DNA from: Candidatus Omnitrophota bacterium | GTDB taxonomy: Bacteria; Omnitrophota; Gorgyraeia; Gygaellales; Profunditerraquicolaceae | Reading direction: 5' to 3' | DNA: 64,000 bases | Assembly: GCA_963805065.1 (NCBI GenBank) | Contig: CAWDSS010000010.1 | Location: forward strand, 472,359-536,358 | Part shown: positions 39,201-63,200 of the stretch, piece after piece | Layout of the letters: each line of letters begins with the position of its first letter | Numbering within the stretch: position 1 is the stretch's first letter | Notes under the pieces: generated by a model | Seen by the model: only the letters and a program-made list of their open reading frames with translations | Told to the model about the DNA's origin: nothing | Database searches by the model: none | Position numbers and translations under genes: made by a program

Positions 39201-42200
39201 CCTTACCGTAGCCTTGAACATATTGCTGTACATCAAGACGGCTGCCAAGCAAGATTGCGTCTTTGGCTCCCAGATAGCTCATTGCTTCAGCTATCTCTGA
39301 AATGCTCATTTCCAGCTTATCTTGTGGATATCCGGACATTGATAAGATGATAATATTTCCTTCTTTATTGGCTCCTATGGCAGAAAAGCTCATCGTATCC
39401 GCTTCAGGGTTCCAGCTAACGGAATTCCCGTCAAGACCCTTTATATTCTCTTTTAGTAAATGGTATTTAAATTCGCTGTTTTCAATCAGAAGCGGCCCCC
39501 CTATTGCAAATTTAATCCCGGAAATATTCTCCTGAGGAATGCCATTTGCAAAGTTAACGGCAAAAAGATGATTTTCTGCTTTCTCTAAAATGAAGAAGTA
39601 ATGAGTGCCTTCGAGTAATTGCACTGAATCCTGCATAAGGCCTGGCGCTGTCTTGGAAATAACTTTTCCATTTATGATTATGGCTGTATTCGCCTCCCAA
39701 AAGTTACTCTGATGGCCGTTAACCGCCAAAACCATATTTAACTTATACACTAGATTATGGAGTCTGACAAATTCATCTATTATATAGCCCGGGAAATGCA
39801 CAAAGCGCTTGTTAAGTTGAAAGGCTAGCTTTGGAGTCTGGGCCCACTTGCTGAAATCATATTTTGGCGCTACCAAGTTATACCAAAGCTTCAGGCTGAC
39901 TTTGTTCAAATCTACTACGATACCCCTTCCTTCAGCAAAAGTAGTCTTATTTTCAAAGATAACCTTTGAAACTTCTAAACCATTAATATGATTATCATAA
40001 GGATAAACTTTTAAGCCGGACAAAACCGGGCTGGATGTCTCATGCGAAGAGCTAAGCTTATCAAATTCAACTACAGCTTTCTGAAATTCTAATTTGTGCA
40101 TTGCAATTTGCTTTTGAGTTAATCTGAATCGTTGGCTCAGACCACGCGCTAATTTTTCCAAATCTTCTTTCTTAAAATACTGTTCTGCAAATGCTATGTT
40201 TAAGGGTAATAATTGATCGAATTGAGACATAACTTCGGTTTTAATCTTTTTGGTAAGAGATTCGTCTTCCGCTATGGTGTCCTCGTTTTTCAACCACATT
40301 AAAACATCCATTACAGCTTCTTTTCTGGCTTGAGTCTTTTGTATCTGGTCCAAACTAGTATATAAACTTATTAATTCTTCCCGAAGTTTGGCTAACCCAT
40401 TTTTCGTTTCCTTAATCGACTTATTAAGTTCTGCAAGCTTATTTGTCTTGGTTGCAATAATACGTCTCAACTCAGAACGCCTTAAACTATTCTGCCTCTT
40501 TTCATTTATTCTGCTGATTGCTGCCTTAATAGATAAAGAGATTTCTGTTGACTTTTCAGCCATCGGGCTGCTGCCCTGACCGTCATCTGTAATGTTAGGA
40601 TAGGATTTTCCAAAAAGATTAAATGCAATCATCGTTTTGGCCATCTCTAAGAATTCTTCATATCTCTTTAATCCTCTTTCTACCTGTCTTATGTATTCTT
40701 CTATTCCTTCTCCTTTATAAATACTGGGGTGTTTCAAATTAGCCAGGTTTTGTTCCGCTATCTTAAGACTATCAATAAAACTTGCCAACACCGCTTTAGC
40801 TTCCCCGATTTCAAGGGCAAATAACAATTCCTTTTCTAAAACAAATAGGTTGGGATGAGGAACTGCTGAGCGAAGCTCTTCATCCAGAAATCCATATTTT
40901 CTAATTAATGCTGCTACCGCATAGTGTAACAGGTTTGAGTACGCTCTATCGGCATAACTAATTTTCTTCTCATAACCAAAAATCATGGGCTTATGGAAGA
41001 AGATAAACCCGTAATCAGGCTCATACCAATTCAACTTCGTAAGTAAAGCCTCGGCTACTTCGCCGCCAAATTCGCTAAGCAGCCCTTCGTAATACTGTGG
41101 CGTAACAGTATTGGGTTGATGAGTCATGATATATATAATCAAATTATTTAAATAATTATTCTGTTTCTCTGTATTATATTGCGCACAAACAATTTTGGAG
41201 GCTTGATTGAATTGCTTTGCATTAAATTCAATAACTTTAAGCTCCAATAAGCTAGCCAATCTATGGGCAAACTCAGAAGAAGTAATTTTTCTATTCTGAA
41301 TGTTAATAATCCCTATTGCTTCAATGGCTTGGTCAATTCTTATCTCAATGTCGTCCAGGGTAATGGGGCTTGTGGCTTCCTTGCTTTCATACTTCTGCGG
41401 ATTAATCAGCATATCGAGGTAATCGGGATGATCCATGATGTAACGGTAGCCCACATAAGGCAGATAAGCAAGACCAGTTATAGGGCCTTCTTTCTTGACA
41501 AGGTTGGTAAGGGCATTACGGATATCGGTTGCTGAGGCAAGCCCTACGCCTTTTAAGAAAGCATGATCCACGGCGGTAGTAATAGGCACGGGTCTTTCTC
41601 CTCGCTGAATGAACAAGACTTTAATCGAATGAACCTCTTTGTTGAAGCCATATTGGTTAGCCTTGGACTCAGGCAATTCTTCAAACTTCTGGATAGTATC
41701 TAGCGTAGGCTCCACGCCATAGTAAGCCGCCCAATTCTTGTAATCCTCTGTGTCTTTACGCATCTCCTGGGGTGCCTGGATAGAGCCTTTGATAATCGTG
41801 CCGTCCGTAAGGACAAACGGTATATTTTTGCCGTTTTCATCCTTCTCCATTTTATTCTCAGCCCATCTGTTATAATGGTCACCACCAACAAGATAAAATG
41901 CCTTAATGGGTTGTTTGGGATTCAGAGATAAAATACGGAAGGTGTCATATTCGGCGTCGTAGCTGACGTTTTCAGAATAGCCGAATAACGGCGCAAAAAT
42001 TTTCATTTGCTGCTCGGAGAGTTCATAGCGGTAAGGCTCTGTTACTTTTAAAATTTTCTTACGCCAATCCTTGCCGCTCTGGATATCGTAGTAGACTTTG
42101 TCTACTCTTTGCTCTGCAATCGCCTTGAAGCCAATGAGAAAATGATCCCACTGCGGCGGATTAGCTGCAATACCGAAGAGGGCAAGGTTTAAGACTCTGT

Positions 42201-45200
42201 CAACCACCACAACATCTTTTTCTCTACCGGTGGTGTAAATATTCACCTGTGGATTAACTACGCCTTGGATAAGATTAGTAGCAATCTGCCTTAAGAAGTT
42301 TTCAGCATGGGACAGGCGTATTGCAAACTCTTTGTAGCTAAGATCGAGGCCGATTACTGAGGCCATGTGTTTCATGTCATCAACGATAAACTCATATAGA
42401 TCTTTGGTCACTGGGTGATCGTAGAGGGTAATGGGGCTTGTGGCTTCCTTGCTTTCATACTTCTGCGGATTAATCAGCATATCGAGGTAATCGGGATGAT
42501 CCATGATGTAACGGTAGCCCACATAAGGCAGATAAGCAAGACCAGTTATAGGGCCTTCTTTCTTGACAAGGTTGGTAAGGGCATTACGGATATCGGTTGC
42601 TGAGGCAAGCCCTACGCCTTTTAAGAAAGCATGATCCACGGCGGTAGTAATAGGCACGGGTCTTTCTCCTCGCTGAATGAACAAGACTTTAATCGAATGA
42701 ACCTCTTTGTTGAAGCCATATTGGTTAGCCTTGGACTCAGGCAATTCTTCAAACTTCTGGATAGTATCTAGCGTAGGCTCCACGCCATAGTAAGCCGCCC
42801 AATTCTTGTAATCCTCTGTGTCTTTACGCATCTCCTGGGGTGCCTGGATAGAGCCTTTGATAATCGTGCCGTCCGTAAGGACAAACGGTATATTTTTGCC
42901 GTTTTCATCCTTCTCCATTTTATTCTCAGCCCATCTGTTATAATGGTCACCACCAACAAGATAAAATGCCTTAATGGGTTGTTTGGGATTCAGAGATAAA
43001 ATACGGAAGGTGTCATATTCGGCGTCGTAGCTGACGTTTTCAGAATAGCCGAATAACGGCGCAAAAATTTTCATTTGCTGCTCGGAGAGTTCATAGCGGT
43101 AAGGCTCTGTTACTTTTAAAATTTTCTTACGCCAATCCTTGCCGCTCTGGATATCGTAGTAGACTTTGTCTACTCTTTGCTCTGCAATCGCCTTGAAGCC
43201 AATGAGAAAATGATCCCACTGCGGCGGATTAGCTGCAATACCGAAGAGGGCAAGGTTTAAGACTCTGTCAACCACCACAACATCTTTTTCTCTACCGGTG
43301 GTGTAAATATTCACCTGTGGATTAACTACGCCTTGGATAAGATTAGTAGCAATCTGCCTTAAGAAGTTTTCAGCATGGGACAGGCGTATTGCAAACTCTT
43401 TGTAGCTAAGATCGAGGCCGATTACTGAGGCCATGTGTTTCATGTCATCAACGATAAACTCATATAGATCTTTGGTCACTGGGTGATCGTAGAGGGTAAT
43501 GGGGGAAGAAACCTTTCCTTCTTCTATCACAAAATTACCAAACGGATTATTTTCACTGGCACGTCTGGAATTATCAGCATAGATCTTCCATGTTTCACCC
43601 ATATCGGTTGAAAGCCGAGCAGTAAGTTCAAGCCTCTGGCCTGCTTTAATACTAATATATTTCTTGAAGACAATATTATGCCCCTTCAATTCACCGGGGA
43701 ACATCTGTCCGAGACTTTCCATCTCTGTAGCTTGACTGCATCCTATAAGCTCAGCCTGATAAACACCACCCATTGCTAAAGACATCATTGAGGTATAATT
43801 GTAAATTAACGCAGGCGATACATACGCTTCGACTGTTACTTCGTAAACATCTGATTTAAATTCTGTGACGTGCATATTCCCTAGCCAAACATTTTCAGGA
43901 TTGAAAATCTTATTGCTTTCTAAAGTCCACCAAAATTCAATATTGTAAAGATCAATTTCCACTATATGGTCTGTCAATTCCTCATAGGCTATCTCTTCCG
44001 TGGGCTCTAGAATAGAATCTGTTCCACGCAAACCTATCGCAACCTTACCTAACAGGGTGTGAGAAATTATTCCACCGAACTTTGTCAATAATAGAATCTC
44101 TTCCGCACCAATATGGCCTTTCCCCCACTCATCTTTAACACTGTTTCTACCGTACCCGTAAACGAGATGGGCTATGACGCGGCGAATGCCGTCTTTTCTT
44201 AACTTTCTAAACAATTCAACATGAAGCTTAAAACCTAACCCCTGGCCTTGATAGTCGTTATCCACAGCAGTTGAATATAAATTGTATTCTTTTATGGCAC
44301 CGTGATAACCGAGATAAGTAGCGATAATATAACCTACCAGTTTACCTTTACCTGTACGTGCCGTAAATGTAACGGTATCATTGTGATCCTGCGTCTCGAG
44401 CAAATCATTGACCAAATTATCATTTTTGTCTGTTGTCGGAAGAGAGGCTAGCGCGGCATAATCTTTTGTGCGGTCTAAGCGTTCTGCTTTTATAATAATA
44501 TTTTCGGTGGGAGATGAGGCGGAAAATTCCTCAGGCTGAGCTCTGGTTAATGCGGTATTGCCTAACCCGCGCGCTTCCAGATATTGCTCTGTGCCTTGAA
44601 ACACTACTGCTGAACCGGATAAATCCTTACCTATATTATGTACTCTGTCATGTGCTATACGTTCTAAAATATTGGCTAATGCCAGCGAATTAATTGTGTT
44701 ATTAGCATTATCCTGCGCTGGAATCGTTTTTTCTTGTGTCTCATCAGCCAATGGGCTGCCGGATTTTCCTTCCCTTCCCTCTAATTGCCTCTTTAATTCA
44801 TCAATTTTCTCTGTGGCGTTTTCTGTAGTAAAACCATTAATGAAACTTAAAGCTTCAGAATAATGAGGAATAATTACTTCTATCCCCTTCCGAATTTTAT
44901 AGATATAGGGATCTGGTTCCATATGACTACCAATATAGATTTGTCTATAAATAGGAATTTCCTCACCATAGTAACAATCAGCAGAAGTTCGATCGTATCC
45001 AATAAATTCGCCATTTATATAATCCTTTACTTCTCTTTCACAGCGTTCAGGTACTTCTATAAAGATTCCTTCAGAATCTTCTCGGAGCAATTTACTAATA
45101 TATTGGATCATCGTGTTGATATCGACGCCTTTTTTCTTAAGTTCAAATAGTTTAGGAATAGAGCACCTTAGAAAATCCTTATAACCAAATTCATAACAAT

Positions 45201-48200
45201 ATTTCTTATGCTTTTTTTCTTCGCTGTATTCTGTATGTAAGTCTTCTAGTAAATCTTCATATCTTAAATACCATACATCTGCTATGCCTTTGATTAATTC
45301 TAAATAACCTATCAATTCTTCAAGTGTTTCTAATTCAGCTAGTAATGCAGGTATAAAACCTCCCTGGAAAGTAATCCGGTAGAAGAAAGATTGATATTTG
45401 GCTAAATCAGTTGCAAAATCTTCGAGCTTATCCAATCCTTGAGCATATTTAGAAATATTGTCTTTTGACCATTTAGCTAGGCTAGGTACGGCATGCATTA
45501 AGACGCAGCATGGCAATAGCCCTTTATCTATTAATTTAATACCCAAATTAAATGAAAGTTTTAAAACCTCATTACTTTTTTCAAAATTACTACTAACTCT
45601 TATCAATTCTTTAACTATTATTGTAATATTATCTAAGGAGAATTTCTTTTGCTCGAGTTTCTGTTTAAATAAAGCCAAGATGTTCAAAGGCTCTCTGTTA
45701 TAATCTAATTCTGCTATCTTAAGTAATGAGTCTGCTGCGTATAAATCCTCTGTTTCCACTGTTATTTTAATCAAGGAATCTACTGAATCATAACCAATTG
45801 CAGTTAATACATGAAAAACTCTATTAGGATATCGACAATTCTTTGATTTGAGTGCACTTATGAGTGGATTGATTGCGCGTTTCCTTTGTTTAATAAGAAT
45901 ATTCGTCAGATCTGAGCGATTCCCTTCAAAGTCATTAACCATGTACTTTACTAAAAACTCTATATCTGGAATCGAGAGGTTCTGATATTCCATACGAGAG
46001 TAATAACGTAGTATTTTGTTAAGTTTCTTTTGTTCTTTTCTTCGTTCTTTATAATCTTTTGGTTGCAATACAACATCACTAACTATAGCTAGTAATATAC
46101 CTGTAACAAGAGTTAGTCCTAACCCGGAAGAAAGTACTATATCATAAGTTGAACATCCTCCAATTAAAGATAATAAACTAAACAAAAGTAAGATATATAT
46201 ACTTCTATAATTAATAATTTTATTTAATAAGCTTATTTTAATTGACTTGCTATAAGATTTATTAATCAAAGCGCAGAGCGTTTCCTTAGCTTTAATTTCA
46301 TCATATCCGGCTTTATAAAGCAAGGCTTCTTTGGCTAAGTCAGGTTGAGTGGTATATAGTGCTACGGTGAGTTCTGTTTGCTTTTGTGAAGCTTCCCGGT
46401 CTTTCTTTTGCGCTTTGAGAGCAAAGATTTCTTTTAAGGCTGCATGATTAGCTTTGGCTAAGTCTGGGGCACGGACTTTAAGATATACTAATTCATTCTC
46501 CAATACCTTCTTATATGCTTCTTTGGTCCAATCGTATAACATCTCTTTAGCTTTGGCTTCATTGTAACTGGCTTTATAAAGCAAGGCTTCTTTGGCTAAG
46601 TCAGGTTGAGTGGTATATAGTGCTACGGTGAGTTCTGTTTGCTTTTGTGAAGCTTCCCGGTCTTTCTTTTGCGCTTTGAGAGCAAAGATTTCTTTTAAGG
46701 CTGCATGATTAGCTTTGGCTAAGTCTGGGGCACGGACTTTAAGATATACTAATTCATTCTCCAATACCTTCTTATATGCTTCTTTGGTCCAATCGTATAA
46801 CATCTCTTTAGCTTTGGCTTCATTGTAACTGGCTTTATAAAGCAAGGCTTCTTTGGCTAAGTCAGGTTGAGTGGTATATAGTGCTACGGTGAGTTCTGTT
46901 TGCTTTTGTGAAGCTTCCCGGTCTTTCTTTTGCGCTTTGAGAGCAAAGATTTCTTTTAAGGCTGCATGATTAGCTTTGGCTAAGTCTGGGGCCTTAGCTT
47001 TGATGTTCCCTAGTTCGCTCTCCATTAATTTTCTATATGCCTCTTCAGTCCAAGTGTAGAGCATTTCTTTGGCCTTAGCTTCATCATAGCCGGATTTGTA
47101 GAGCAGGGCTTCCTGGAAAAGCACGAGTTGATCTTTCAGGTTATGTATAGTTAAAACCAATTCATAGAAAAGCTTTTTGGCTTTATCTAGATTGTTATCA
47201 GCATTGTCCAACATAAGCGCCTGAGCGGATTGAGAAGCTTCATTCCAAATCTCCTCTATGAGCGCTTGTTTATATTTATTGAGGGCGTCTTTAAATACCT
47301 TTTCTTTTGCTTTCTTTTGATCATTATTTGTAGCTTCTAAGGCAGCGGCTTTGGTATTTTCGTCAGCAGTATTCCATGTTTGGTCTATTAAGCCCTGAGG
47401 TGCTTTTTCTCTATCAAGAGCTTCTTTTAATTCCCTTGCGTGCGTCCAGGCAAAATTGTGGGCATGGTTAAAAGCAGCTATCAATTTAGTTTTCTCAGAT
47501 TTGTTTAAATCTAGGAGTTTATTCCTAAAAGCGGCCATAAAGAAGATACCATTATCCCAAAGTTGAGTAGCAACTTCTTGTTTTTGGACAGTAACGTGCT
47601 GTTTGTTTTCTTTCAGGCTAAAGATTTTCGCTAAGCTGGCGTGATTTGTTTTAGCCAAGTCTAAAGTTTCATCTATAATGTTGTCTAACTCATCTTCCAT
47701 CATCTTCCTATATGCCTCTTCAGTCCAGGCATAGAGCATTTCTTTGGCTTGAATTTCATCATAGCTGGATTTGTAGAGCAGGGCTTCTTTGGCTAAGTCA
47801 GGTTGAGTGGTATATAGTGCTACGGTGAGTTCTGTTTGCTTTTGTGAAACTTGCTGATCTTGCTGTTGCGCTTGGAGAGAAAGGATTTCTGCTAAGCTGG
47901 CGTGGTTTTTACTAGCTAAGCCTAAAGTACGCATCTTAATATCAAATAACTCATTCTCCATGACCTTCCTATATGCCTGCTCAATCCAATCGTATAGCAT
48001 TTCTTTGGCTTGAGTTTCATCATAGCCAGCTTTATAGAGTAAGGCTTCCTGGGATAAGAGAGTCTGGATGTTATATAGTGTTTCAGCGAGTCCTGTTTGC
48101 TTTTGTGAAGCTTGCTGCTCCTGCTTTTGCGCTTTGAAAGAGAAGATTTCTTTTAGGGCTGCGTGATTAGTCTTGGCTAAGTCTAGGGTTTTAGATGTGA

Positions 48201-51200
48201 TGTTATCTAGCTCACTTTCCATTAACTTCCTATATGCCTCTTCAGTCCAAGTATAGAGCATTTCTTTGGCTTGAGTTTCATCATAGCCGGCTTTGTAGAG
48301 CAAGGCCTCTTTGGATAAGACAGCTAAATTGTTGTATAGTGCTGCAGTGAATTCTGTTTGCTTTTGCGAATCTTGCTGGTTTTGCTGTTGAGCTTTGAGA
48401 GAGAAGATTTCAGCTAAGGTGAAATGATTTGCTTTGGCTAACTTATCAGCTTCAAAGCGGATAATATTTGCTTCTCTTTCCATATGAATTATATATGAGT
48501 TATAAATTAACGTGTCCAAATCTCCATAATTACCTTTTAAATCCTCGAACAACTGTTCTTCCTGTGTGGTTAACCTTTCTTCAATATGATTCTTAAGATA
48601 ATCTCGCACTTCACTAACTCCCAGACCCACGAGGTTACCAAGAACTATATTGTCTATTTTTCTATAAATCGGCAACTCAGTGCCATAACCAAGATATTTG
48701 TACACAACACCTATCTCTTCTTCTTTGCCTGGGAATAAAGGAGCTTGCTCTTTAACTAAAACCATGCCTTTTCCGTCATTCCAATGCGTTAATGTATCTA
48801 ACGCCTCTATAAACGCCCTTTCAGTTTCCTTTTGACTGATATCAATACCCAGCTTACCGGCAAGCTGCGCTATTGTGTAAACCATATAAATTGGAGGATG
48901 CCTATTAAAATATTCATCGAGCTTGCCTAATAATTCATTCTTGAGCTTGCTGAAGCGCCTTGCCTTTAGAATGCTACTGATTGGGCCAATAGTTAATAAG
49001 CCAATCCATAAATAGGAACTCCAAATTTCATGGATACCCAAGAAATTAATGAGATTTGAGCCGAAAAGCAAGGCTATAACCGATACTAAACCAGACCATG
49101 CATACCATTTATATTTTCCTGCATTTTCAACAATAGGATTCCAGACTGCATCAATAGTTGCCATTCCAACTTTACCGCCTTGGATATATGCCCGATAAAC
49201 GTTGCTATCAGGGAAGTATTTTCTCTTAACTGGTTTTAATGGTATTAAACCAAATAACCTTACGCCTTTATAAGCGAAGGTTTCTTTGCCTACTTTTAGC
49301 TCTTCTCCACTCCCTGTCTTTACGCCAAATCCTAAAATAAACAAGTCCTTCATAGCTTTTCTGAACATAAACCAACCACCAATAACCATCTCTATAACCC
49401 TCTCTCTGCGGTGTGCTTCCAATACCAACCAGCTAGCCAGTATCAATAAAGTAGGGATAGGCACAAATAAGCTATAAACACTTAATAAGAGAATGGTGGC
49501 AGTATCAGCAGATGTTTGCCTGCCGGTTAATGCGCTGCCATTTATTAAATCTTTAACCTTCAATATAAACCATACGCCTAATATGCCTGCCAAAAAGTAA
49601 TATCCTAAAACTAGGGATACTATTAAGCCTGTGGTACCCATAACCAACGGGACTACCTTACTTGAAGTGCGTGGTTCGGTATCCAGAGGATTATAAATAA
49701 ACATACCGCCGACCCAGTTATACATCATCAGGATGAACAAAGGAGCAACAAATAAGAATAGACTAGGTTCGTATGCCGCGAGCGTAAAAAGTAGTAGTAA
49801 AACGGGGGCTGCGGGCCGCGCTCCAAAGATATGGCGTAACAGTAAAACTCCATAAGTTTCTTTCTTGCTAGCCGGCTCTCTTGTTGATACCCTGAAATCA
49901 AAGAAACCCTTGAGGCCTCTTCTAAGGGCTGAATTGTCATACATCGGGATAAGCAGGGTAAAAATCCAGAAATAACCCGGATCATAGGCAGTGCCTTTAA
50001 TGAATGACAGTAGCCCTTTAGGTGAGCCATATTTTAAATTAAGCATGGCAACAGTTGCAAAGTTGATAGCCATAGCCATGCTGTAACCGGCTAATACAAA
50101 CATCCAATTAATTGGGAACGCATACGCAGGATTAATAGGCAAGACAACTGCAAATATATTAAATATGACATTAGTAATAAGGACTGCCAATTTCAAGCCA
50201 TAGAACGAACCCGGGGTATTTTGGTTATCATATTTTTCATTTAAAGGAATATTCGGGCTGACATTGAAACGCACAGCGCCTAACATATCCTCTAACTCTT
50301 CCTGGTCGGCAATATATTTCTCTTCCGGGTCAGCATTAAGGCCAACACTTTCACCCTTGCCGCCATAGAAATTAATCGCCTGAGTATAATACACTGAAGG
50401 GCCTTCGTTACGCATCATCAACACAAAATAAGCATCTTCTGCTACCAATGTATAAGGCAGGCAGATTGCCGGCATATTCCAAACATACTTATAGTCTGAG
50501 GCTATATTGGCTTTGGGTTTACGCGGCCTTACCTGTAAATCTACTTTAGCGCCGCCGCCTCTCCCGTAGAAAAGGACCATACCTTTCAGGGACTTCACCA
50601 ACTGCACCATAAAAGTCCAGGTAGTTTCAGAGATTTTAAACCCTCGCCTGACTATGGTGGCATCCGGGCTTATTACATCCATTGCCATAAGTAACACGCC
50701 ATATTCAGGATGATTAAAATGAGAAATAACATTCGGTAAGAACATACATCTACTAAATGTACGGTGATGTGCTGCGTCTCCATAAAGCGCAAACGAAGTT
50801 AAATACCTTAAGTTCAATACCCAGCCCATGGCTTTGTATTGTGCATTTGCCTCTCCAAAACGTAACCTGCCGGTCATCATTGCTGCTCGCCAGGCGTCAG
50901 ATGCTTGAGTTGGAAAGCTATCAAAATCAGGATGAATATTTGCCCATAGTATCAGATGCTTTTTTAACAACTCAGATATGCCCGTAAGATTACCTTGAAG
51001 CAGATTATCAATCTTAGTGCCATCTTGAAGTTCTTCTTGTAATGATAAATACTCCTCTTTTTTCTTTTCTAATTTTTCTCTATCTTCGGGTTTTTGTGGC
51101 TTTGCTAAGGCTTTATTACATTTTTCTATCTCTTTATTTATTAATCGAGATAATTCTTTTTCTCCCCTATATACCCGGATTAAACTCTCCAACAAAGTCA

Positions 51201-54200
51201 TTCCCGGAATCTTATAGGGATGAACAAATTCTTTATCATTCAAATCTTCCCATGAACATTCAGGGAAAAGCCCTCCTAATTCAGGGCCATTGAGATTAAT
51301 AATATTAATATTTTCTGGCCTAGAAGTATATTGTATCAATTGGTCTTTAATGTTTCCGCCAAGCCCACCCCAACCCATAGCATTAAAATTAATTTTATGG
51401 CGTTCGTCTATCAATTGCTCCAACAATCTATCAGCACGTAAATATGTTTCTTCGTCTTTGTCAAATTTGCCATACCTTAAGAAAGATTCAAACTCATCAT
51501 CCAGAAGGAAACTCAAAGAAACCCAATGTCGTCTCTTCAATTCTCCCAACAAAGCAATATTCTTGCCATCAACTTCCTTTGCAATGTCAGCTTGATTTAG
51601 AACAACTTCTATCTTATTCCTCAATGCAATCCTTTCTTGTGTTTCTCTACCGGTATTTGTATCTCTTTGCGACCCGAATGTCTCTTTCAGTTTCTTGTAA
51701 GTCTTAGGTAATTCTTCCTCTCTGGCCTCACCTTCCGGCATATTTTCTGACTTGTCCTCCAGCCCGCTTTCTAATTCATCTTCTAACCACAAACGCAACA
51801 CTTCTCTATTAAGCTTGCATGATTCGACGCTTCTTAAGATGACCTGCTGCGTAAAATAAACCCACTCGGAGATTTTCTCTAGTACCAAATCCTGCTCTTC
51901 CTTATTAAGAGATAAGCTACTTAGGATATCATTTGCAGCTTTAGGTGATTCAAACTTAGCTGCTAAAAGCTTGGCTTTATCTGCCTCTGTTTTGATATAG
52001 CCGTCTATAAATAATAATTCCACAAAGTATTTCCATTCTGCGCTATAGGTATCTATAAGATTATATAGCAAGGTAGGATAAGCCACTGACTTTTTATCAG
52101 ACTTGCCTGTCCCTTTTCCTTGAGAATCAGTTAGTTCTTTTACTAAACCAACAATGCTGTTATTGCCTACCCATGGCGGGCCAACCGGCTCTTGATAACC
52201 GGAAATCTGGTCTGTTATATGAGGCGCTTCTTCAAAATACATCTCTAAAGCCGGGATTCCTTCAGGAGCATTCTTGGTGAAATAGGTATTCAAATACCAC
52301 CTCAGCTCATCCCGCATCTCTGAAATTAAATTACCCGGCAGCCGATACTTAGAAAGTTCCCTGTATTGCTCAACGCCAATCTTACGCGACAATAGCCATT
52401 TATTTAAGTTTATCTGATAACGTGCTAAACCACGCTCTCGTAATTTCGCATTATCTGTCTCTCCCTTGAGGCGGAAAATGTTGAATCCCAACCTGACTAT
52501 AATTTCAGTAAGTTTATAAATATTTTTTAACAAATAGGAAATTATAGAGGCTATGATAAGACCTTTCGCCATCTGAGATACCAAAGCCGCGCCAACCAAT
52601 GTTGCTATTCCAAAATAATTATTCATTAATAGGATTGCCGTGTTAATCCCTATGGAAATAAACTCTAATGCACGTATCCTAAATAATATAAATTTAGCTG
52701 AATATAATATAAGTTTAGCTAAATCCCAAAGGGAAGCAGTTCTGCCCATTAATTTAAGCCCAAACTTAATCTCGCTATCAGTACTAAGAGTGTAGCGACC
52801 TACTTCGCGATGGGCCTTGCGTGACACTAACCAAGTGCCCCAGGAATTAACCGCACGGACCATAAGGAAACTGAACAACATCCATATAGAGTGCATTAAG
52901 GGTATTATCAATGCCCAGTGAAGGAAGGTATCCAAGCCCACAGCTAATCTTTCTGGAGGCATGCTGAATATCCACATGAATACCAACATCAATAAGGAGA
53001 GGCGCGGGACAATCCACATGTACATCCTGGTATAATACTTGACGCCTTCCTTAACCTTTTGCTTATCTTTCTCCGATAGCTCATTCCATTGCTCTTCGGA
53101 CATGCCTGTATGAATCTTATGCTTTTTATCATAAAATCTCGTTACACGCGGATCATTAAGCTGTTCAGCAAGAACGTTAAGGAAACCTGGTTTGCCTTTG
53201 GTATGTTCTTCAATAAAAGCCTTAATGCGCTTATTCAACCTGTGATAAACTATTTTATTAATCCCCACCCAAATAAATCCAACTAATGCCGCGATTAATA
53301 ATGTGGGGCCTGCCAATAATAAAGTAATGGCAAAAATATTGAATGACTGCGAAATCAATAGTGAGCTGGTCATAAAAGAACCCAACACTTGAGCCACCAG
53401 AGGAATTATAAGATTGATGCCTGCTACTACATATCCCAACATAAAGTACTTAGCCGCCAACACTGCCGAGATACCGATTAAAACCCACTTTATGGTATTT
53501 GGCCAGAAATGAAGCAAACGCAGAGGCCGCAGATATTTCTTGGGGAACGTTGAGATAAATATTGTTTTATTCTGTCTAACTTCTTCTATCTCTTTGGCTA
53601 AGGCTTCATCTTCTGCCTTGAGCGAATCCATGATTTTATCAGGAACGATTTCATAGCCAGAGAGAGAATCAACCCTGTTAACTAAATGCGTGTTTTGTGT
53701 TCTTTCCAGGGCATGCTTTAACTCATTAACAGTGAGCTTGCCCTTAAAATGCGCAAGTAAGTAGGAAACGAATTTCGAATCCACCAATTCATGCAACAAC
53801 ACAGAACGTTGATTATGTTCGAGCGCAATCAAAATTTGCACTAAAAGCTGTTTGGAAGGTATATGTTCATCCTGCAAATCGCGTAGCGAAACGCCGTTCT
53901 TTTCTTTAAGCAATTCTGTATTTATCTTTTGCTCAAGCACATCTTTCAGCTTGGTTTCCTGACCACTGGCATCCCGCTTAACAGCCAAATTCTTTAAATG
54001 GCCTAAATTGACCTGCAATACTTCAAACGGATCATTGTAATCACAATAAGCGTAAAGCAAGTTCCAGCCCTCTTCTTGCAAAGTGAATCTCCAATCAAAC
54101 CCTTCGGTCTTTCTTATCCTATCGCTAAGTATTTCATTAAGTTCAACTTGAAGCAACATGTTTGCCAAGACAGTTTCGTCTCTGAATAACTCTACAATTT

Positions 54201-57200
54201 CCTTAAGCCAGCCGGTTTTGGGAGCCTCGCCCCTTGCCTTCTTTTGGGCTTCCATTTCTTTTGCGGTTTTCATGGCATATTCATAGAATCCCTGTTGTGC
54301 CTGCTGGCCACCCGCGGCAAATTGCATGATAAATGTAAGTGCCAAATCTCTGGCTGGCATGTCCGCCCAGCCGCTTTTCTTATCCAAGGTAGAACGCCTA
54401 ACCCTAATATACAATCCATCGGCTGCTATTGCATCCTCATCAACCTCAGCATCTCCTTCTACCAAAAGCCCTTCCCTAGTTTTTTCCAGCATTTTTGCTA
54501 CAATATATTTACGAGTATCTAATTTATAATTCTTTCTTGTGGTATCTATTTTTGCCAAGCGCAATGCTTTCCAATCTTTTTCATTATCTGTTAAGCCATA
54601 TTCATCAAGGTAGGAATAATATTGTTTTTTTCGTGCTGCTATTATCGCTTTAACGAATACCCGGTAGCCAAGTAAGCGATTGCCAAATAGATAGTAAAGC
54701 ACGCCTAAACCATCCTTGACGTCTTTTATTATTTCCTTCAGCTGCTCAATATTAAAAGTATTTCTATTAGCGAGCAATCTCTTTAAACCTAAACTAACCT
54801 GCGGGAATATAGTTTCTAATCTATTCTTAAACTCTTCCTCATCATTGATATTCAATAGTTCCTCCAGCCTGGCTTTGCTATTCTTATTAACTGGGGAGCC
54901 GGCAGACGGAGGATTAGTATTCGATTGCCTATCTCTAGTAGCAGCGGCCTGAAGATTATTCCTCTTTGACTTCCATAACTTGATAAAGTTAAGAACAACT
55001 TTTATAATGCTTGCCAGCGCTACGATAGAAAACACAATGAAGACAGTGGCTATTAATATCGTATTATTGGCTATAGCAAATTGAGATTGCCCTGCATCAG
55101 TTTTTGTTTCACTCTTGGAATAAATGGAGCGTTGGTTATCTATATCGTTGTTAACTTTTCTCTCAACATTGACTCTTTCTTGTTTGGTTAATAAGCCCAA
55201 GGCTCTGTCTGTGAAATCTAACCAGCTAGTTTTCGTTCTCTTCCAATAATTACTAATTATGCTGTTATCAACCACCCTATCCCTAAATCCCTTGTTAAGA
55301 TAATGCTCTCCTCCTTTTGTTTCAGTGCGGTATTGCGTCTCATGTACTGACATAAGCTTTCCGTTAAAATAAACTCTCCAGGGTGTGCCGCTTGAGAATG
55401 GCACATTAGGATGTTGTTCTAGCCACCGCGAGGCATCTCCTTTTAAACCAGCCCTTGCATTTGATTCATAAACAAATACCCAGCCAAGCCTATTGTCTGT
55501 CGTTACAATCAAGTCCTTATCAGGCACAAGAACAGATAAATTAAAGTCTAATTGGCTTAGCCTTAAATAAAGCCTGTCTGGTAATTCAAACTGGTCATAA
55601 GCAAGCGCGGATTTACGAGGGAAGAAGCCCTCAGTTTCATAACCCCCAAAGAGACGCCTTCCGTCAAATCTTAAGCCTATGGTTCTTAAAGAATCTTCCC
55701 TCGTGTCAACTGTATCATAGACTATGTTGCCATTCTTAAACCTTAAATTAGCAACATATGCTACCCAATCACTATCTTGCCAATCATCTATTGAATTTTT
55801 AAACGGATTGTTTCTTGCCCACCATCCAGGCTGTGCATATTTTGTAACATCGGTGGATTTACGTGGCTCATATTTATATGTATAGTTCTTTTCAGCGATA
55901 CCTAAGTGAGACGGCCCGATATCAATAATAGAAGCGGGGCTTCGTTTGTGAATAAAGAAGGAAATATAGGAAGGTACACCTTCTGATCTGCCTGTTATTT
56001 CATTAATCTCAGGGTATTCTGAGAAAACATAGGACAATCTTCCTTCCCCATCTTTTACTTCGCGAGTCGCATCTACTATAGCTCCAAAAGCAAAGTAAGG
56101 CCTTATTTCAAAATAAGAATGAGGACTATACTCTCCAAGTTCTCCTCTAATTACATCGTTCGTAAATAGCCCGGGATTAATATTCCTTAAATAAGAAGCT
56201 TTATAAACTTGCTCGATGGCGTTTGCAAATACAGAGGTAACACCTCTGATGCCAATACTATATTTACCCCATAAATCATCTCGATAGAAGGTATAACCTT
56301 TTAATTCCGGATTTTGATTAAGATCAAAAAATTCCGTGAGTCTAACCCTGCCGCGCCAATCTGAAGTCCTTTGAATATCTATTTCTTCTTCTTGGGGTAA
56401 GATATAATTAACCCGATGCAGACTAGTGATATCTTTATAATTAATATCCTGTAGTTCAGACTTCTCAACGGGATGGCTATTAAAACCTTGAATGGCCAAG
56501 AGATAAGGATAAGTTGATACAAATGCCTGAACTTCGACATATTTTAAGTATGCGGGGTTGTAAGGGACTTCATTCTCATACTTCAAATCAAGGAAAGCCC
56601 TAAGCATGAAGTTGTCGTTCATAAACTGCTCGACTGCGGATTTGCGTTGCACATAATCCGGCTTGGCAGCGAGCATGTCGATGGTGCCTTCAATTTCCTG
56701 GCGCGTAAAATAATGTTTCTTGGAGAGTGTATATTTTTCTCTTAGATAAGGAATAAGATAGGCCTTGTTATCGGTGTCAACTCTCAGGTAATCCCTGACT
56801 TCAAGCAAGCCTATCTGTTTGACGTAATCCAAAACAAGGGTCTTTTGCGGTGAAATAAACAAGCTGTAGGCAACTTTTTCATTAAGCGCAATATCAAATC
56901 TCACGCTGGCATAGACGCCGGCGAGATCTCTTAACACGATATCCATAAAGCCGTTGCTGATGCTTACTACCGGCATATCCTCTTCAGGCACAAAGCCCTC
57001 AATAATTTCTTTGACTCCCACTCCCTCGGGTGAGAGATATGTCCTCTTAAAGAAGTCTATCCTCTCTGTCTCAACGCCCTGCTGTTTTAAAATAGCGAGG
57101 GCATCTTCGCCTAAGGTAGATTTATCAACTTTTCCGGAATAACCGATGAGCTGTCCATTTTCTTTTAAGTAATCATTCTGGCCGGCCTTATGGCCTCTGT

Positions 57201-60200
57201 AGTATACAATTTCTGTAACCACGCCTTCCCTGTCTTGTTTAAGCTCAAAACCTTCTCTGTTCAGGTCTCTTATGCGTGCAAACAAATCTGCCTGTTTAAA
57301 AGTATTAAGTTCTGCATTTAGCTCGCCAGCCTTCCATTGATAATCCCTGTAATATTGATACAGGGTATTGTAATCACCACTTTCGTCTTTCTTAAATACC
57401 TTAGCTTCCTGTTCAACTCCGCCAATGCCATAACCCGGGATAGACTTCAGCAGATAATCAACCGTGCCATTCTTCTCAATACCCCTATATTCGTCAATGA
57501 CATTGCCCCAGACGTTAGCGGTTTTTTGCACGTAGTAATCAACAAGTCCGGCATTGAAATCCTTATACCATGTTTCATTAATGCTCATGGTTTTTGTCTC
57601 ATAATCATAGAGGGCTGTAAATGGCGCGAGAACTTCCAAAGTATTCTTTTCTCTAATTACTCCACCTATGAGCACGCCGTTTGCCTGATAGAATTCCTCT
57701 GCGTCTTTCAAAATGCCTATCTGTCTTCTGACGCGGCCGATAACATTATAGATTTCAGTAATCTCCTCGCCACCATGCATCCAGTTAAACACTTTTTGTT
57801 TGCGGCCGCTCTCTGAAATAGCTTGTGTAGTAATAATATTTTTCTTTAATGCTTCGCTGTAAATAGCGCTATTGAAAAGGGTGAGCCTGTCGCTATAGCC
57901 CATAAATACTCTGCGAGTATCGAAGATGCCGGGCACAATCTCGATATTATTGAATTCATTAATCCTATTGAGGCTGGACTGCGTATCAACAAGAGTTGTG
58001 CCCTCTTCGCCCCATGCTGTGGTGTAATCTGACTTTTGAGTGTGTTTGGCAAAATTAAACCCATTCTTCTGCTCTTTGGAATCTATAACAACTTCTCCCA
58101 GAGAATTCTTGGTAATCCTGCCGATTTCCCTTAGATCAACGCTAAGCGTGATATTATATCCGAAGGTCTCAAATAGGCCTTGTCCCATGTCAATGTCTTC
58201 TATGGTGCCTGAGAGTTCTTTACCCACGAATGTGCTGATGACCATCTCTCCGGTCTGCTCATCTGCCCTCTTATAGCGGAAGGTGGCTGTTTGATTAATT
58301 TTATCAAGGGTGCCGGCATCAAGGGTATCTCTCCATGTGCTCATTACCCACAAGGATAATTCACTTGCATCAACCCTGCCATTATTATTAGCATCAACAT
58401 ATGTGTCGCGTCCTGCTTCAATGCCTAAGGGAGCAAACCTTGCCAGCACCAGTAATGAAACCTTCCTTCCCTCCCGAGGCTCAATCACATACTCAAACAT
58501 AGTGAACAAGCCTGTCCTTACATCTAAAACAGCTGTCTCACGGTGGGCATTGGACCAGGTAAACTCATAACTAATAGTCTTGTTTTTGGGATTGGCAATT
58601 CCGTTCTTGCTTTCAAGCACCCAAATATCCTCGGCTCCGTCCAGATACATCTTCCAACCAATAACAACCTCTACGCTGTTATAATCTCTCCTAATGTCAT
58701 AGGTCCGCTCATGGCCATTAATCTTACCGTGCATCTTAATATTACTAAGCAAGCCGTTGTAAGCATTCTGGTCGTATTCCTGCCAGTTGCCCAACGCAAA
58801 ATATTCTTTCTTAAATAATTTGGCGTCATGCGCATCAGTAGTAACCGTATGCTTAACCTCTCCGATTTGGCGGCCGAATCTAAATTCTATTGTTATAGTC
58901 ATCTTTTCAATTTCATCTTCGTCATATTCAATCTTCACCTGCCATACCACGCCTTCGCCTAACACATCAGGCGACGTAATTAAGACAAACATCGCCAGGC
59001 CGTTGTCTAAGCTTTTGATAATCTGTTTTGTCTCGCCTGTATTGGGGTTATAATAATCTTCGAGCAGGCTTGCCCTTAACACATTACCGGCTGCATCTCT
59101 GACTTGCTTAGGCCTGCCCAAGTCATCCAAAACGCTGGTTGTCCCATCAATCAGCTGGCCGGATAAGTTGGTCCTCCTGGATGCCTCTTCAATGTCAATA
59201 GAGTTAAACCCGATATCAATAACATTGTAAGGGGTCATGTAACGCACAGGTGCGCCGTTGACAAGGTTAACAAAGATGGACATCTTCATACCGACTTTTG
59301 GCCTTGTCTCTTCAACCTCCAAAACCCTGTAGTGGCCGTAGAAGGTGTCCAAATCCACTAAATTCTTTGGCACGGATACGCGGCTAACCCTGTCTCCGGC
59401 AGTCTGCGTGTCTGAATTCCAGAATAACCTTTCTACCCTAGATGCAATTCTTCTGGCTCTCCAATAAGCATCATCGTAGGAATACTTGTTAACAACACTG
59501 GCATAGATGTGGCCGTTTTCGTATTTAATTTTACCCTTATCTTCATAAACTTCTCTTACCTTGCCCTTACCGTCAAAAACCCAGATAGACGCGGTTTCTT
59601 TAACCGTCTGGGGTATTTCAAAGGTAGTGCCGCCAAATTTATTGAATTCCAAGAAGTTGGATTCAGAAATCTGTAAACCTGTGATGAGGTCAACGTCTCT
59701 TGAGTGCATGGCTGCGCCAAATCCGGCCCTGAATGCATCTGTATAATCAAATGTCTTCTCGCGATGCACCATATGGTTCCTGCGGATTTCTTTATAGAGT
59801 AAATTAAACACGTCTTTTTCCTGTGTAATCTTCAATGCCGTTACCTTGTCGTCAACTTCCAGGATAAACCGTACCCCATATATCGTATCTTTAATGCCGG
59901 TCTTCTCATTGAATGTTGTTTCGCCAAGAGTCTCACCGGTATTCAGGTCATCTTTTACGCTCTTGGCAGCCATGCCGATAAACTCCATAAATGCTGACGT
60001 ATAGGTGTTTTCTGTGCTAACACCGTCTTCTCTATCGGTTTCTCCAAGAATGTCGCCAGCGCCCAAATCAATCAGGCGGTTCACGGTATAAGACTCAATG
60101 CGATCAGGCGTATAATAGGTAACTTGCTGGCTCGTTATCTCCCGTGGGATATCAACCGCTTTGTTTTCAACTCTGCTATAGAGAGCTCTTCTATCCGGCG

Positions 60201-63200
60201 TCTCAATAAATGTATTGATGTATTTGGGGATGAAGAAAGGTTGATGGGTAGCATCGTAATATACCCAATTATTATTTCCATACTCATACTCTTTAACCTG
60301 GCTGTAGCCGATACGGGAATCTAATTTCTCCCTGAGAATTCTGCCGTTATCAGCTGCAAAGGTTTGCTCTGTGCTGTATAAAAGCCTTCCGTCCGGCAGG
60401 AATAAATATTGCCTATGGGTAGTCTCCTGATCAGCCTGATTTATGGGCGTTTCTCTGACGCTTATAGAGCCAATCTTACTGGCAAACGCTATGAGATCGC
60501 TTTCATGCGCGAATTTGCTTCGAAGCTCTCTTAAATTATTGGCTTCGCCGATAAAGCTCACGCTCAAACGGGCAACACCATCTGGTTGCATCTTTGTTGA
60601 TATGCTGTAGCCGTCATAGAAGAAGATGGTTACTACACCGTTTATAATCCTGTATGAGAAGCCGACTTTTTCTGCCAAAGGATTAACTCGTGATTCTCCC
60701 AATTTCTCAAGCCTGGCCTGTATAGTTTCCCAGTTTGCGCGCATCTTATATACCACTTCTAAATATGTAACTGCATCCGGAAATCCTGCTTTGCCTTCAG
60801 CTCTCTGCCGGATAAGCCCAGAGATATCAAGTAAGAAATTTTCTACTCTTGCCAGGTTCTTGCCTTGAGGATGTTTAAGATCAATGCCGAAACGGCCATC
60901 ATAAGTAATGCCTAAGTTATAGAAGAAGTTAACAGCCTCGGCATAATAATAATTTGAGTTAATTTCTCTTAAGAGCTTAATCATGCCATTTAAAACAGCA
61001 ATATATTCTTGCGGCGTCTTCCAGAAATCGGTTGATTTCGAGCCAATCTTATCTGCGACATCAGCAATCTTTTGTCTTAATGTGGGGGAATATCTGGCAT
61101 TGCCGCGATAAGGAATGCCTTGCAAACCATAAACCTCTCTAATCTTGTCAAAGGCTCCTCCTTGTTCCATTGCTATCTGAATCTTGAGATTATTTAATAC
61201 ATCCTGGATAGTCTTGGGTTGGCTTAAGGTATCAATAACTGTACAGCCGGTAAGCACATCCAAACGCTTAACCTGTGTCTTGCCGATGTTGGCCACGGCA
61301 TCAAACACGATCTGCCTTAACACAGCGCTCTTGGTAGAGACGCCGATTTTCTCATCAGTGGTGCCTAAGAATTTCACGCCTGCTAAGTCTGTGTAGAGTA
61401 AACGTACGGCATCCAGGCCGCCCTGCTGATTGAAGCTGGCAGCATTCTTGTAGCTATTGATGATATCCTGTAAGGTCAGGGCTGTATCTAAGGTGGTAGT
61501 GATCACAGCGCCGGTGTCGATGTCTACACCCTTGATGGAGGTCTTGCCGATGTTGGCCACGGCATCAAACACGATCTGCCTTAACACAGCGCTCTTGGTA
61601 GAGACGCCGATTTTCTCATCAGTGGTGCCTAAGAATTTCACGCCTGCTAAGTCTGTGTAGAGTAAACGTACGGCATCCAGGCCGCCCTGCTGATTGAAGC
61701 TGGCAGCATTCTTGTAGCTATTGATGATATCCTGTAAGGTCAGGGCTGTATCTAAGGTGGTAGTGATCACAGCGCCGGTGTCGATGTCTACACCCTTGAT
61801 GGAGGTCTTGCCGATGTTGGCCACGGCATCAAACACGATCTGCCTTAACACAGCGCTCTTGGTAGAGACGCCGATTTTCTCATCAGTGGTGCCTAAGAAT
61901 TTCACGCCTGCTAAGTCTGTGTAGAGTAAACGTACGGCATCCAGGCCGCCCTGCTGATTGAAGCTGGCAGCATTCTTGTAGCTATTGATGATATCCTGTA
62001 AGGTCAGGGCTGTATCTAAGGTGGTAGTGATCACAGCGCCGGTGTCGATGTCTACACCCTTGATGGAGGTCTTGCCGATGTTGGCCACGGCATCAAACAC
62101 GATCTGCCTTAACACAGCGCTCTTGGTAGAGACGCCGATTTTCTCATCAGTGGTGCCTAAGAATTTCACGCCTGCTAAGTCTGTGTAGAGTAAACGTACG
62201 GCATCCAGGCCGCCCTGCTGATTGAAGCTGGCAGCATTCTTGTAGCTATTGATGATATCCTGTAAGGTCAGGGCTGTATCTAAGGTGGTAGTGATCACAG
62301 CGCCGGTGTCGATGTCTACACCCTTGATGGAGGTCTTGCCGATGTTGGCCACGGCATCAAACACGATCTGCCTTAACACAGCGCTCTTGGTAGAGACGCC
62401 GATTTTCTCATCAGTGGTGCCTAAGAATTTCACGCCTGCTAAGTCTGTGTAGAGTAAACGTACGGCATCCAGGCCGCCCTGCTGATTGAAGCTGGCAGCA
62501 TTCTTGTAGCTATTGATGATATCCTGTAAGGTCAGGGCTGTATCTAAGGTGGTAGTGATCACAGCGCCGGTGTCGATGTCTACACCCTTGATGGAGGTCT
62601 TGCCGATGTTGGCCACGGCATCAAACACGATCTGCCTTAACACAGCGCTCTTGGTAGAGACGCCGATTTTCTCATCAGTGGTGCCTAAGAATTTCACGCC
62701 TGCTAAGTCTGTGTAGAGTAAACGTACGGCATCCAGGCCGCCCTGCTGATTGAAGCTGGCAGCATTCTTGTAGCTATTGATGATATCCTGTAAGGTCAGG
62801 GCTGTATCTAAGGTGGTAGTGATCACAGCGCCGGTGTCGATGTCTACACCCTTGATGGAGGTCTTGCCGATGTTGGCCACGGCATCAAACACGATCTGCC
62901 TTAACACAGCGCTCTTGGTAGAGACGCCGATTTTCTCATCAGTGGTGCCTAAGAATTTCACGCCTGCTAAGTCTGTGTAGAGTAAACGTACGGCATCCAG
63001 GCCGCCCTGCTGATTGAAGCTGGCAGCATTCTTGTAGCTATTGATGATATCCTGTAAGGTCAGGGCTGTATCTAAGGTGGTAGTGATCACAGCGCCGGTG
63101 TCGATGTCTACACCCTTGATGGAGGTCTTGCCGATGTTGGCCACGGCATCAAACACGATCTGCCTTAACACAGCGCTCTTGGTAGAGACGCCGATTTTCT

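Follow-up and report, generated by a model that had tools for sequence, protein, structure and literature searches.

The window, as we call the whole 64,000-nt stretch that was analysed, lies entirely within one reading frame on the minus strand, which runs through 21,333 stop-free codons and is open at both window ends. Because this 64-kb frame carries no frameshift in a frame scan, the base-level accuracy of the sequence is high. A single ORF of this length is a giant gene by the measure of at least 10,000 codons. It contains at least 13 domain matches above the curated Pfam cut-offs, belonging to about 10 families: HEAT, four methyltransferase modules, GNAT, NAGPA, a GT5 starch synthase, phosphorylase/GT1, PGM, GAF with HD_5, HAD and TPR. 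A crude Kyte-Doolittle scan also marks 21 hydrophobic 19-mers that resemble transmembrane (TM) segments, and Pfam detected no peptidase domain in the window, past both ends of which the ORF continues. The window carries no phylogenetic marker.

The unrelated enzyme domains are set apart by a short peptide, [S/T/G/A]-S-S-P-[V/I/M/L], that is found in relatives too. S-S-P occurs 35 times in the ORF where 2.7 occurrences are expected, and its codons differ synonymously from one occurrence to another. These junctions fall inside none of the 13 Pfam domains, against 4.7 expected, an outcome matched by 24 of 10,000 random placements. Directly after S-S-P, Met is enriched 11-fold. We considered whether the residues at this position are former start codons and rejected the idea: Met is indeed enriched, but the V, I and L codons are not confined to GTG, ATT and TTG, and an aliphatic preference is the safer description.

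A perfect duplication of one module

Within the ORF, one junction-delimited module is present twice in tandem. The features of this region, in coding order after the ORF itself, are as follows.

1 to 64000, minus strand: the part of the giant ORF in the window
43501 to 43509, minus strand: junction J1, TCT TCC CCC (S-S-P), upstream of module copy A
43493 to 43504, minus strand: 12-nt microhomology CCCCATTACCCT at J1, the coding-5' end of the repeated tract
42433 to 43500, minus strand: module copy A, ORF residues 6833-7188, 356 aa, ITLYDHPVT...ESKEATSP, NadD-like nucleotidyltransferase (predicted)
42425 to 42441, minus strand: hybrid junction J2, ACA AGC CCC ATT ACC CT (T-S-P-I-T-L), left flank as in J3 and right flank as in J1
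41365 to 42432, minus strand: module copy B, ORF residues 7189-7544, same sequence as copy A
41357 to 41373, minus strand: junction J3, T-S-P-I-T-L, with the third microhomology copy at 41357-41368, followed by an unrelated 267-aa module

When positions 41357-42424 and 42425-43492 are compared base by base, 0 of 1068 positions differ, which places the 95% upper bound on divergence at 0.28%. Identity at period 1068 extends exactly from 41357, where it starts, to 43504, where the second copy ends, a tract of 2 x 1068 + 12 nt. The perfect 1,068-bp tandem duplication that the first-pass annotation had placed at 41357-43504, with identity reaching 12 nt into the next junction, is thus borne out in its extent as well as in its perfection. 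The period is a multiple of three (356 codons), the reading frame is preserved through the duplication, and the two encoded copies are identical over their 356 aa; the copy number of two is that of the assembled sequence. The same annotation had put the boundaries of the repeat at the junction motif, and this too is what we find, as the duplicated unit runs from one junction to the next, comprises exactly one module and has its breakpoints inside junction codons.

On the coding strand, with the shared bases set between slashes, J1 reads ..GTT TCT TC/C CCC ATT ACC CT/C TAC GAT (V-S-S-P-I-T-L-Y-D), J2 reads ..ACA AG/C CCC ATT ACC CT/C TAC GAT (T-S-P-I-T-L-Y-D) and J3 reads ..ACA AG/C CCC ATT ACC CT/G GAC GAC (T-S-P-I-T-L-D-D); the AAT GGG G noted earlier at the junction is the reverse complement of C CCC ATT. 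J2 is the novel joint made by the duplication. Its specific string is GAAGCCACAAGCCCCATTACCCTCTACGATCACC, and the protein sequence across the junction includes EATSPITLYDHPVTK. The 12-mer CCCCATTACCCT, which spans the codons for S-P-I-T-L, lies at 43493-43504, 42425-42436 and 41357-41368 and has no further site in the 64-kb window, even with one mismatch allowed (three found against 0.23 expected; 0 of 100 shuffles reach three).

The conserved S-P codons supply just the first four of these 12 bases (C CCC), while the remaining eight (ATT ACC CT, encoding I-T-L) are specific to the ancestral pair J1 and J3. With only these four bases in conserved junction codons, the microhomology lies at the junction without being the motif common to junctions in general. 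The proposal that the junction sequence acts as microhomology therefore holds in part: a 12-nt direct repeat does lie at both ends of the unit, with the hybrid J2 between the copies, but eight of its 12 bases are outside the conserved motif. With those eight bases outside the motif, part of the coincidence may be chance. Direct repeats of at least 12 nt are also common to other junction pairs in the ORF (33177/34074, 34071/35034, 39095/40562 and 14717/16643). A degenerate third copy in the downstream module (ITLDDIEIR...), as an explanation of the shared I-T-L, was considered and rejected, since BLASTP gave no similarity (best E = 0.42). The breakpoints carry no inverted repeat or hairpin that might promote slippage, the region from 40 to 45 kb contains no Rfam family, and alternative frames on either strand hold short ORFs only.

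Two further perfect tandem arrays lie in the ORF, one of 264 nt x 10.3 and one of 261 nt x 2.6, and their units contain no junction. That a 64-kb window holds three perfect arrays may also be the result of near-identical repeats having been homogenised in the consensus when the sequence was assembled or polished. The junction-delimited module had been named as the unit of copy-number change; this describes the present case, where the unit is exactly one module, but as two perfect arrays are not junction-delimited, "the" unit is an over-generalisation. The association between junctions and breakpoints comes from one event in the window: apart from the duplicate pair, an all-versus-all comparison of the junction-delimited modules matched just two methyltransferase modules, which are 27% identical, and showed no second recent module duplicate. 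When all 21,333 aa of the ORF were searched with a profile for diverged extra copies of the module, copies A and B alone were recovered.

The duplicated module and its relatives

An AF2 model of the module has a pLDDT of 93.7 and a pTM of 0.92, with coil at both termini. The best 30 Foldseek matches to this model in the PDB are all NadD, with TM-scores normalised to the target of up to 0.73, and a PDB profile match to NadD 1kam has E = 2e-10. On this modelling, which displays a Rossmann-like nucleotidyltransferase fold, we confidently predict that the duplicated 356-aa unit is a complete fold and a divergent NadD-like nucleotidyltransferase. The divergence is considerable, as identity to solved NadD structures is about 12-14% and, compared with NadD, the module has an additional helical hairpin at its N-terminus and 40-70 inserted residues; the module family shares with NadD an ASSTxIR-like motif and an HWxH-type motif. 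An (H/T)xGH motif with both histidines is absent from the module, whose sequence there is P-Q-W-D-H. Where the consensus among homologues is HWxH, the module has Gln for the first His, as does the closest homologue, P0001_b. The module has no Pfam match at E <= 1, and its small homologues miss the PF01467 gathering threshold, with 16.8-18.7 bits against a cut-off of 21. Free-standing homologues of about 300 aa begin within a few residues of the junction position.

Relatives were found by full HMMER against 1.84 billion representatives. Word-indexed protein searches returned nothing, either with the module alone or with a reconstructed single-copy allele plus both flanking modules, and a search for related loci in genome, viral and metagenome contigs gave only a spurious match, to the word IVDDMKHM in a glycoside hydrolase signal peptide. 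The module is most closely related to partial giant proteins from MAGs of Candidatus Omnitrophota: of eight large homologues that were looked up, five are annotated under that name, and so are the best four matches. The best homologue is 51-56% identical, and the NadD-like copy b of P0001 is 56% identical to the window module. A module order shared with P0001, the closest relative, was considered and rejected, as P0001 has no match to either flanking module.

Related Omnitrophota giant proteins hold 2-5 copies of the NadD-like module. Within one protein these paralogues are 70% (P0002, adjacent copies) or 87% (P0003) identical, versus 30-63% to copies in other proteins, and in P0003 the similarity begins right at G[GS]SSP. 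Because relatives carry paralogues at 70% and 87%, module duplication is a recurrent process in this family, of which the window shows the youngest stage.

Origin of the duplication

We consider it probable that the locus records a real event, in which one complete module of an Omnitrophota-type giant gene was very recently duplicated in tandem and in frame. The copies are head to tail and identical, the joint between them is hybrid, and a short direct repeat lies at the ends of the ancestral unit, as in duplications mediated by microhomology; the 12-nt repeat ends together with the hybrid J2 are what replication slippage or unequal exchange classically leaves behind. The mutational pathway is one that we infer. 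The ancestral gene would have held a single 356-aa NadD-like module, with ..V-S-S-P/I-T-L-Y.. upstream and ..A-T-S-P/I-T-L-D.. downstream, and thus two copies of CCCCATTACCCT at a spacing of 1,068 nt and in the same frame. Mispairing of these two short direct repeats, by replication slippage or template switching or else by unequal sister-chromatid exchange, would yield unit-unit with a hybrid middle junction. The product may have been tolerated because the breakpoints lie in an inter-module linker and leave both copies as intact folding units.

Zero divergence had been taken to imply a very recent event, gene conversion or an assembly artefact; all three are reasonable options, and the recent event is favoured. 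The two copies could instead stem from an older duplication and have stayed identical through concerted evolution, by gene conversion or recurrent unequal crossing-over, as in polyubiquitin genes, in which case zero divergence would not date the duplication. P0003 offers a precedent, since a block of about 225 aa is 100% identical between two of its module copies and the ends have diverged, a mosaic of the kind that conversion leaves, and the window ORF itself holds differently aged arrays of one repeat family, whose 261-nt units are 100% identical in one case and 75% in another. We nevertheless judge this unlikely. Identity in the window covers the entire unit without any mosaic and breaks off abruptly at the 12-nt repeat on either side, and conversion tracts would have no reason to stop exactly at the duplication breakpoints; moreover, relatives retain paralogues at 70-87%, which shows that copies of this module are not, as a rule, homogenised efficiently within the family.

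It is also improbable, in our view, that the assembly misstates the number of units, whether through a loop traversed wrongly or through copies homogenised by polishing. Short reads are unable to resolve a perfect 1,068-nt repeat, the copy numbers of the two other perfect arrays (10.3 units of 264 nt; 2.6 units of 261 nt) are equally hard to assemble, and no independent sequence of the locus was found in the protein or contig searches. The J2 joint, however, is clean, in frame and mediated by microhomology. A single-copy genome would lack it, and a 12-nt overlap should be shorter than any practical k-mer or overlap; since an assembler with k > 12 would need J2 to form a loop, the J2 sequence should be present in the reads. 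Assemblers mostly collapse, and seldom expand, perfect tandem repeats, and a period divisible by three in all three perfect arrays, in a 64-kb ORF free of frameshifts, further counts against an artefact.

That the duplication is real but met the junctions by chance, and is uninformative on modules as units, we regard as very improbable. In its favour are the single event, the eight microhomology bases out of 12 that lie outside the junction motif, and the roughly 33 distinct direct-repeat pairs of at least 12 nt within 3 kb that exist in the window, mostly away from junctions. Against it, junction codons make up a few per cent of the ORF, which puts the estimated probability of both ends falling on adjacent junctions near 1e-3, CCCCATTACCCT occurs at no other window site, the paralogue similarity in P0003 likewise begins at an SSP junction, and a selective filter for intact modules would yield the same association.

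Significance and comparison with known systems

A recent duplication of one complete module supports the view that a giant gene is a row of self-contained modules, each about as large as a gene, which can be gained, and presumably lost, by simple misalignment. A short motif recurs at the boundaries between folded units, as in a polyprotein, and it is possible, though less likely than not, that a bacterial polyprotein is processed here at its S-S-P junctions, with the modules as gene equivalents and the perfect duplication as the counterpart of a gene duplication. Complete folds, N-termini like those of free-standing homologues and the Met enrichment after S-S-P are consistent with this reading. 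If the protein were cut at S-S-P, each translation would release two identical 356-aa proteins; the dose of one NadD-like enzyme would be doubled, with the other products remaining at 1:1. On the same reading, recombination at junction codons would let giant genes grow and shuffle their content one module at a time. How Omnitrophota giant genes originate and change is left open by West-Roberts et al. 2023 (bioRxiv 10.1101/2023.11.21.568195) and by Nielsen & Lui 2026 (bioRxiv 10.64898/2026.06.07.730766). The locus offers a dated, breakpoint-resolved case of recent growth by one enzyme module, with breakpoints in the S-S-P linker, and an example of how a giant gene of more than 64,000 bases can enlarge by one whole unit at a time. 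Its concrete module boundaries can be used for cutting giant proteins for structure prediction and for seeking cleavage products by proteomics. The type of mutation is textbook and mechanistically ordinary; its value lies in the giant-gene context and the testable link to the junction motif.

Tandem duplication through misaligned short direct repeats, by slippage or RecA-independent unequal sister-strand exchange, is established in E. coli and Salmonella genetics. The window shares with those cases the head-to-tail copies, the 12-nt direct repeat at the ancestral ends and the hybrid joint; unlike them, the repeats here encode an inter-module boundary peptide, and the result is an exact whole-module duplication within one ORF. 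Polyubiquitin genes and viral polyproteins, such as that of foot-and-mouth disease virus with its three 3B/VPg copies, also carry identical or near-identical units head to tail in one ORF, where copy number sets product dosage within the polyprotein. Our case has just two units, each of the size of an enzyme, and cleavage at S-S-P is hypothetical. MARTX toxins join unrelated effector or enzyme modules in one polypeptide, recombine at module boundaries and are cut between modules. The string of unrelated modules in a single bacterial polypeptide is common to both, but Pfam detected no RTX repeats or cysteine protease domain in the window. The window ORF, about ten times as long, also has another junction motif, and its modules resemble cytoplasmic metabolic enzymes.

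The closest likeness is to the "multi-enzyme metabolic cluster" class of Omnitrophota giant genes described by West-Roberts et al. and Nielsen & Lui, with which the window shares a stop-free ORF of more than 21 kAA and homologues in Omnitrophota MAGs, and possibly, going by the candidate TM segments, membrane anchoring. The Pfam content of the window (PF08323 starch synthase, GT1, PGM, methyltransferases, GNAT, HAD, HD and HEAT) is that of the published modules 1 and 2. In these two studies, Omnitrophota giant genes reach 147,155 aa, 17% of them contain strict identical tandem nucleotide repeats, and most repeat architecture is ascribed to ancient duplication. Cleavage points in giant proteins are unknown according to West-Roberts et al., and a junction, linker or cleavage-site motif is absent from the text of both papers. 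Unlike the published Omnitrophota repeats, the duplication in the window comprises a whole 356-aa enzyme module, with zero divergence between its copies and with its breakpoints mapped.

The duplicated tract and its junctions

A direct base-by-base comparison of 41357-42424 with 42425-43492 shows a match at all 1,068 positions, bearing out both the coordinates and the description of the 41357-43504 tandem duplication in the first-pass annotation. The period-1068 identity spans precisely 41357-43504, a length of two units plus 12 nt. Identity of such length is far beyond what chance can yield, and 0/1068 differences places a 95% upper bound of 0.28% on the divergence between the copies. The two copies are bounded by three junctions.

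Junctions bounding the two copies, named in coding sense (slashes enclose the shared 12 nt)
J1, upstream: 43493-43509, coding (minus) strand, GTT TCT TC/C CCC ATT ACC CT/C TAC GAT
J2, middle: 42425-42441, coding (minus) strand, ACA AG/C CCC ATT ACC CT/C TAC GAT
J3, downstream: 41357-41373, coding (minus) strand, ACA AG/C CCC ATT ACC CT/G GAC GAC

The 12-mer CCCCATTACCCT is common to J1, J2, and J3, and the window contains no further site for it with one mismatch tolerated. J2 is a hybrid: to the left of the 12-mer it matches J3, and to the right it matches J1. Given the shared 12-mer and the hybrid J2, the simplest ancestor would be a single unit with a 12-nt direct repeat at each end, the two repeats being in frame and spaced by 1,068 nt. 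Misaligned pairing of these repeats would produce the present structure, possibly through replication slippage, template switching, or unequal sister-strand exchange, a pathway that we infer from the scar. An event of this kind is an ordinary tandem duplication mediated by microhomology.

The proposal that the junction sequence serves as the microhomology holds in part. The shared 12 nt do sit at the junction, but the conserved S-P codons account for just the first 4 of the 12 bases (C CCC); the other eight encode I-T-L. At J1, I-T-L forms the module's own N-terminus (compare ITYTSHPVT and ITYASHPVT in the homologous proteins P0001 and P0004, respectively), and at J3 it is the start of an unrelated module. 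Direct repeats of at least 12 nt, arising from junction codon usage, also occur between junction pairs 33177/34074, 34071/35034, 39095/40562, and 14717/16643. These repeats are in frame and 12-14 nt long (one is TCGGGCTGCTGACT, read on the plus strand) and could drive more whole-module duplications or deletions, which makes it plausible that modules are repeatedly gained and lost at junctions. Neither a profile search nor a comparison of every module with every other turned up a second recent module duplication in the window.

Identity of the module

The module has no Pfam match, and its small homologues fall below the PF01467 threshold. A word-indexed protein search with the module returned nothing, although proteins exist that reach 56% identity across a module copy, and no true relative emerged from contig scans. 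The relatives were recovered only by an exhaustive HMMER search against 1.84 billion cluster representatives, which gave 181 matches. An alignment of the module with these homologues (A1) reveals the conserved motifs PxAANPxHWxHL, DHY, and ASSTxIR, and its profile matches NadD structures in the PDB (1kam, E = 2e-10). AlphaFold2 run with A1 gives a single compact fold with coil at both termini (pLDDT 93.7, pTM 0.92), for which the leading Foldseek PDB matches are all nicotinate-mononucleotide adenylyltransferases (TM-score normalised to target up to 0.73). The module is divergent: relative to NadD it has an additional helical hairpin at the N-terminus and an insertion of 40-70 aa.

An HPVT motif lies six residues past the junction, and free-standing homologues of ~300 aa, one of which is named nicotinate-nucleotide adenylyltransferase at its source, start only a few residues before HPVT. 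This shared starting point, together with the single compact fold, means that the junction-to-junction unit is the equivalent of a whole protein. The first His of HWxH, nearly invariant in the family, is replaced by Gln in both window copies (PQWDH, about 43216-43227 and 42148-42159). Gln is also present in the closest homologue, copy b of P0001 (FQWDH); judged from sequence, these copies may form a catalytically altered sub-lineage.

The giant reading frame, its junction peptide, and other repeats

One minus-strand frame is stop-free through all 64,000 nt (21,333 codons, both ends open), and no plus-strand frame is open beyond about 240 codons. Along this ORF are Pfam domains of unrelated enzymes and scaffolds: GNAT, NAGPA, HEAT, four methyltransferase modules, GT5 starch synthase, phosphorylase/GT1, PGM, GAF+HD_5, DUF4135, HAD, and TPR. 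Between the domains stands the peptide [S/T/G/A]-S-S-P-[V/I/M/L], which recurs at some 46 sites from window 258 to 44760. Within the ORF, SSP is observed 35 times and GSP 11 times, each against 2.7 expected, and Met directly after the motif is 10.9-fold enriched. The motif codons differ synonymously (TCT TCC CCC, AGC AGC CCG, AGT TCG CCT, and others), and the motif is therefore conserved as a peptide and not as DNA. None of the 13 above-threshold Pfam domains contains a junction, whereas random placement gives a mean of 4.7 domain-junction overlaps and zero overlaps in only 24 of 10,000 placements.

The same peptide is enriched in several relatives; the remaining relatives checked for SSP enrichment lack the motif.

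Junction peptide in relatives
P0003: SSP, 20 observed, 1.2 expected
P0009: SSP, 25 observed, 1.5 expected
P0011: SSP, 8 observed, 0.5 expected
P0125: SSP, 16 observed, 1.6 expected
P0001: S-S-S-S in place of S-S-P, 9 observed, 0.2 expected

The junction peptide may be a processing site or an obligatory linker. The compact motif, the aliphatic residue or Met after it, its inter-domain position, and the whole-protein nature of the modules make the data compatible with S-S-P being putative processing sites of a bacterial polyprotein, in which module duplication would tune dosage. No protease was found within the window.

By a crude hydropathy scan, the ORF has 21 TM-like segments, none of which lies in the duplicated module. 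The stretch 44800-64000, the ORF's first ~6,400 codons in the window, has hardly any junction motifs; 10 of the 21 TM-like segments and each of the three shorter tandem arrays are found there. The giant protein seems to comprise an N-proximal membrane/repeat region followed by a C-proximal enzyme region split by junctions.

Shorter tandem arrays in the giant ORF (minus strand)
61277-64000, running off the window: perfect 264-nt (88-aa) array, 10.3 copies, ORF residues 0 to about 908
46309-46992: perfect 261-nt (87-aa) array, 2.6 copies, 100% identical
47621-48441: older array of the 261-nt family, 3.1 copies, 75% identical

One more, diverged copy of the 264-nt unit, which has no Pfam match, comes next in the protein, and DUF5749 gives a weak sub-threshold match in the region of the 261-nt arrays. 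The two 261-nt arrays are two generations of one repeat family. No junction occurs in the 88- and 87-aa units, which means that the module is not the only unit by which copy number changes in this gene. The earlier view of the junction-delimited module as the unit of copy-number change is thus right for the present tract, which is one such module, but too broad for an ORF that also carries junction-free arrays.

Age of the duplication and relation to known systems

The best HMMER matches are very long, mostly partial proteins (P0001-P0005 and P0009), five of them source-named, all as Candidatus Omnitrophota MAG proteins. Several giant proteins hold more than one module copy: two in P0001, two adjacent in P0002, three in P0003, five in P0008, and two adjacent in P0014. 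Copies within a protein (70% identical in P0002, 87% for P0003 a/c) are closer than copies between proteins (30-63%), which indicates, at the level of sequence comparison, that these duplications are independent and lineage-specific. The 100%-identical pair in the window is the young end of this series.

The duplication is probably both real and recent. It is unlikely to be an older one kept alike by concerted evolution, a process suggested by copies a and c of P0003 (MDD5195091.1; residues 3063-3387 and 4139-4463, non-adjacent, with similarity starting at a G[GS]SSP junction). There, a central block of about 225 aa is 100% identical and the ends have diverged, a mosaic that looks like gene conversion or is possibly an assembly chimera in the MAG. 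The window pair is unlike this one: its identity is uniform, shows no mosaic, and stops sharply at the breakpoints, and for this reason a fresh duplication is favoured over conversion. An error of copy number or assembly is quite improbable. Counting perfect repeats of ~1 kb does require spanning long reads, and consensus polishing can wipe out small differences between copies; however, the J2 joint would be absent from any single-copy genome, and we infer that a 12-nt overlap is too short for it to have originated in silico. The joint is also clean and in frame, the periods of all three perfect arrays (1,068, 264, and 261 nt) are divisible by three, and the 64-kb frame has no frameshift. That a real duplication fell at the junctions by coincidence is very improbable.

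The layout of the ORF is that of the 'multi-enzyme metabolic cluster' class among Omnitrophota giant proteins (Nielsen & Lui, bioRxiv 10.64898/2026.06.07.730766), a study that reports strict tandem repeats for 17% of such giant genes. It is also consistent with the giant genes described by West-Roberts et al. (bioRxiv 10.1101/2023.11.21.568195), who expressly call the cleavage points unknown. Neither a junction motif nor a linker motif, S-S-P included, came up in a text search of both papers. The host gene is a member of a described class and the type of event is already known; what this locus adds is a duplication resolved to its breakpoints, whose unit is a single complete enzyme module with the S-S-P peptide at its borders.
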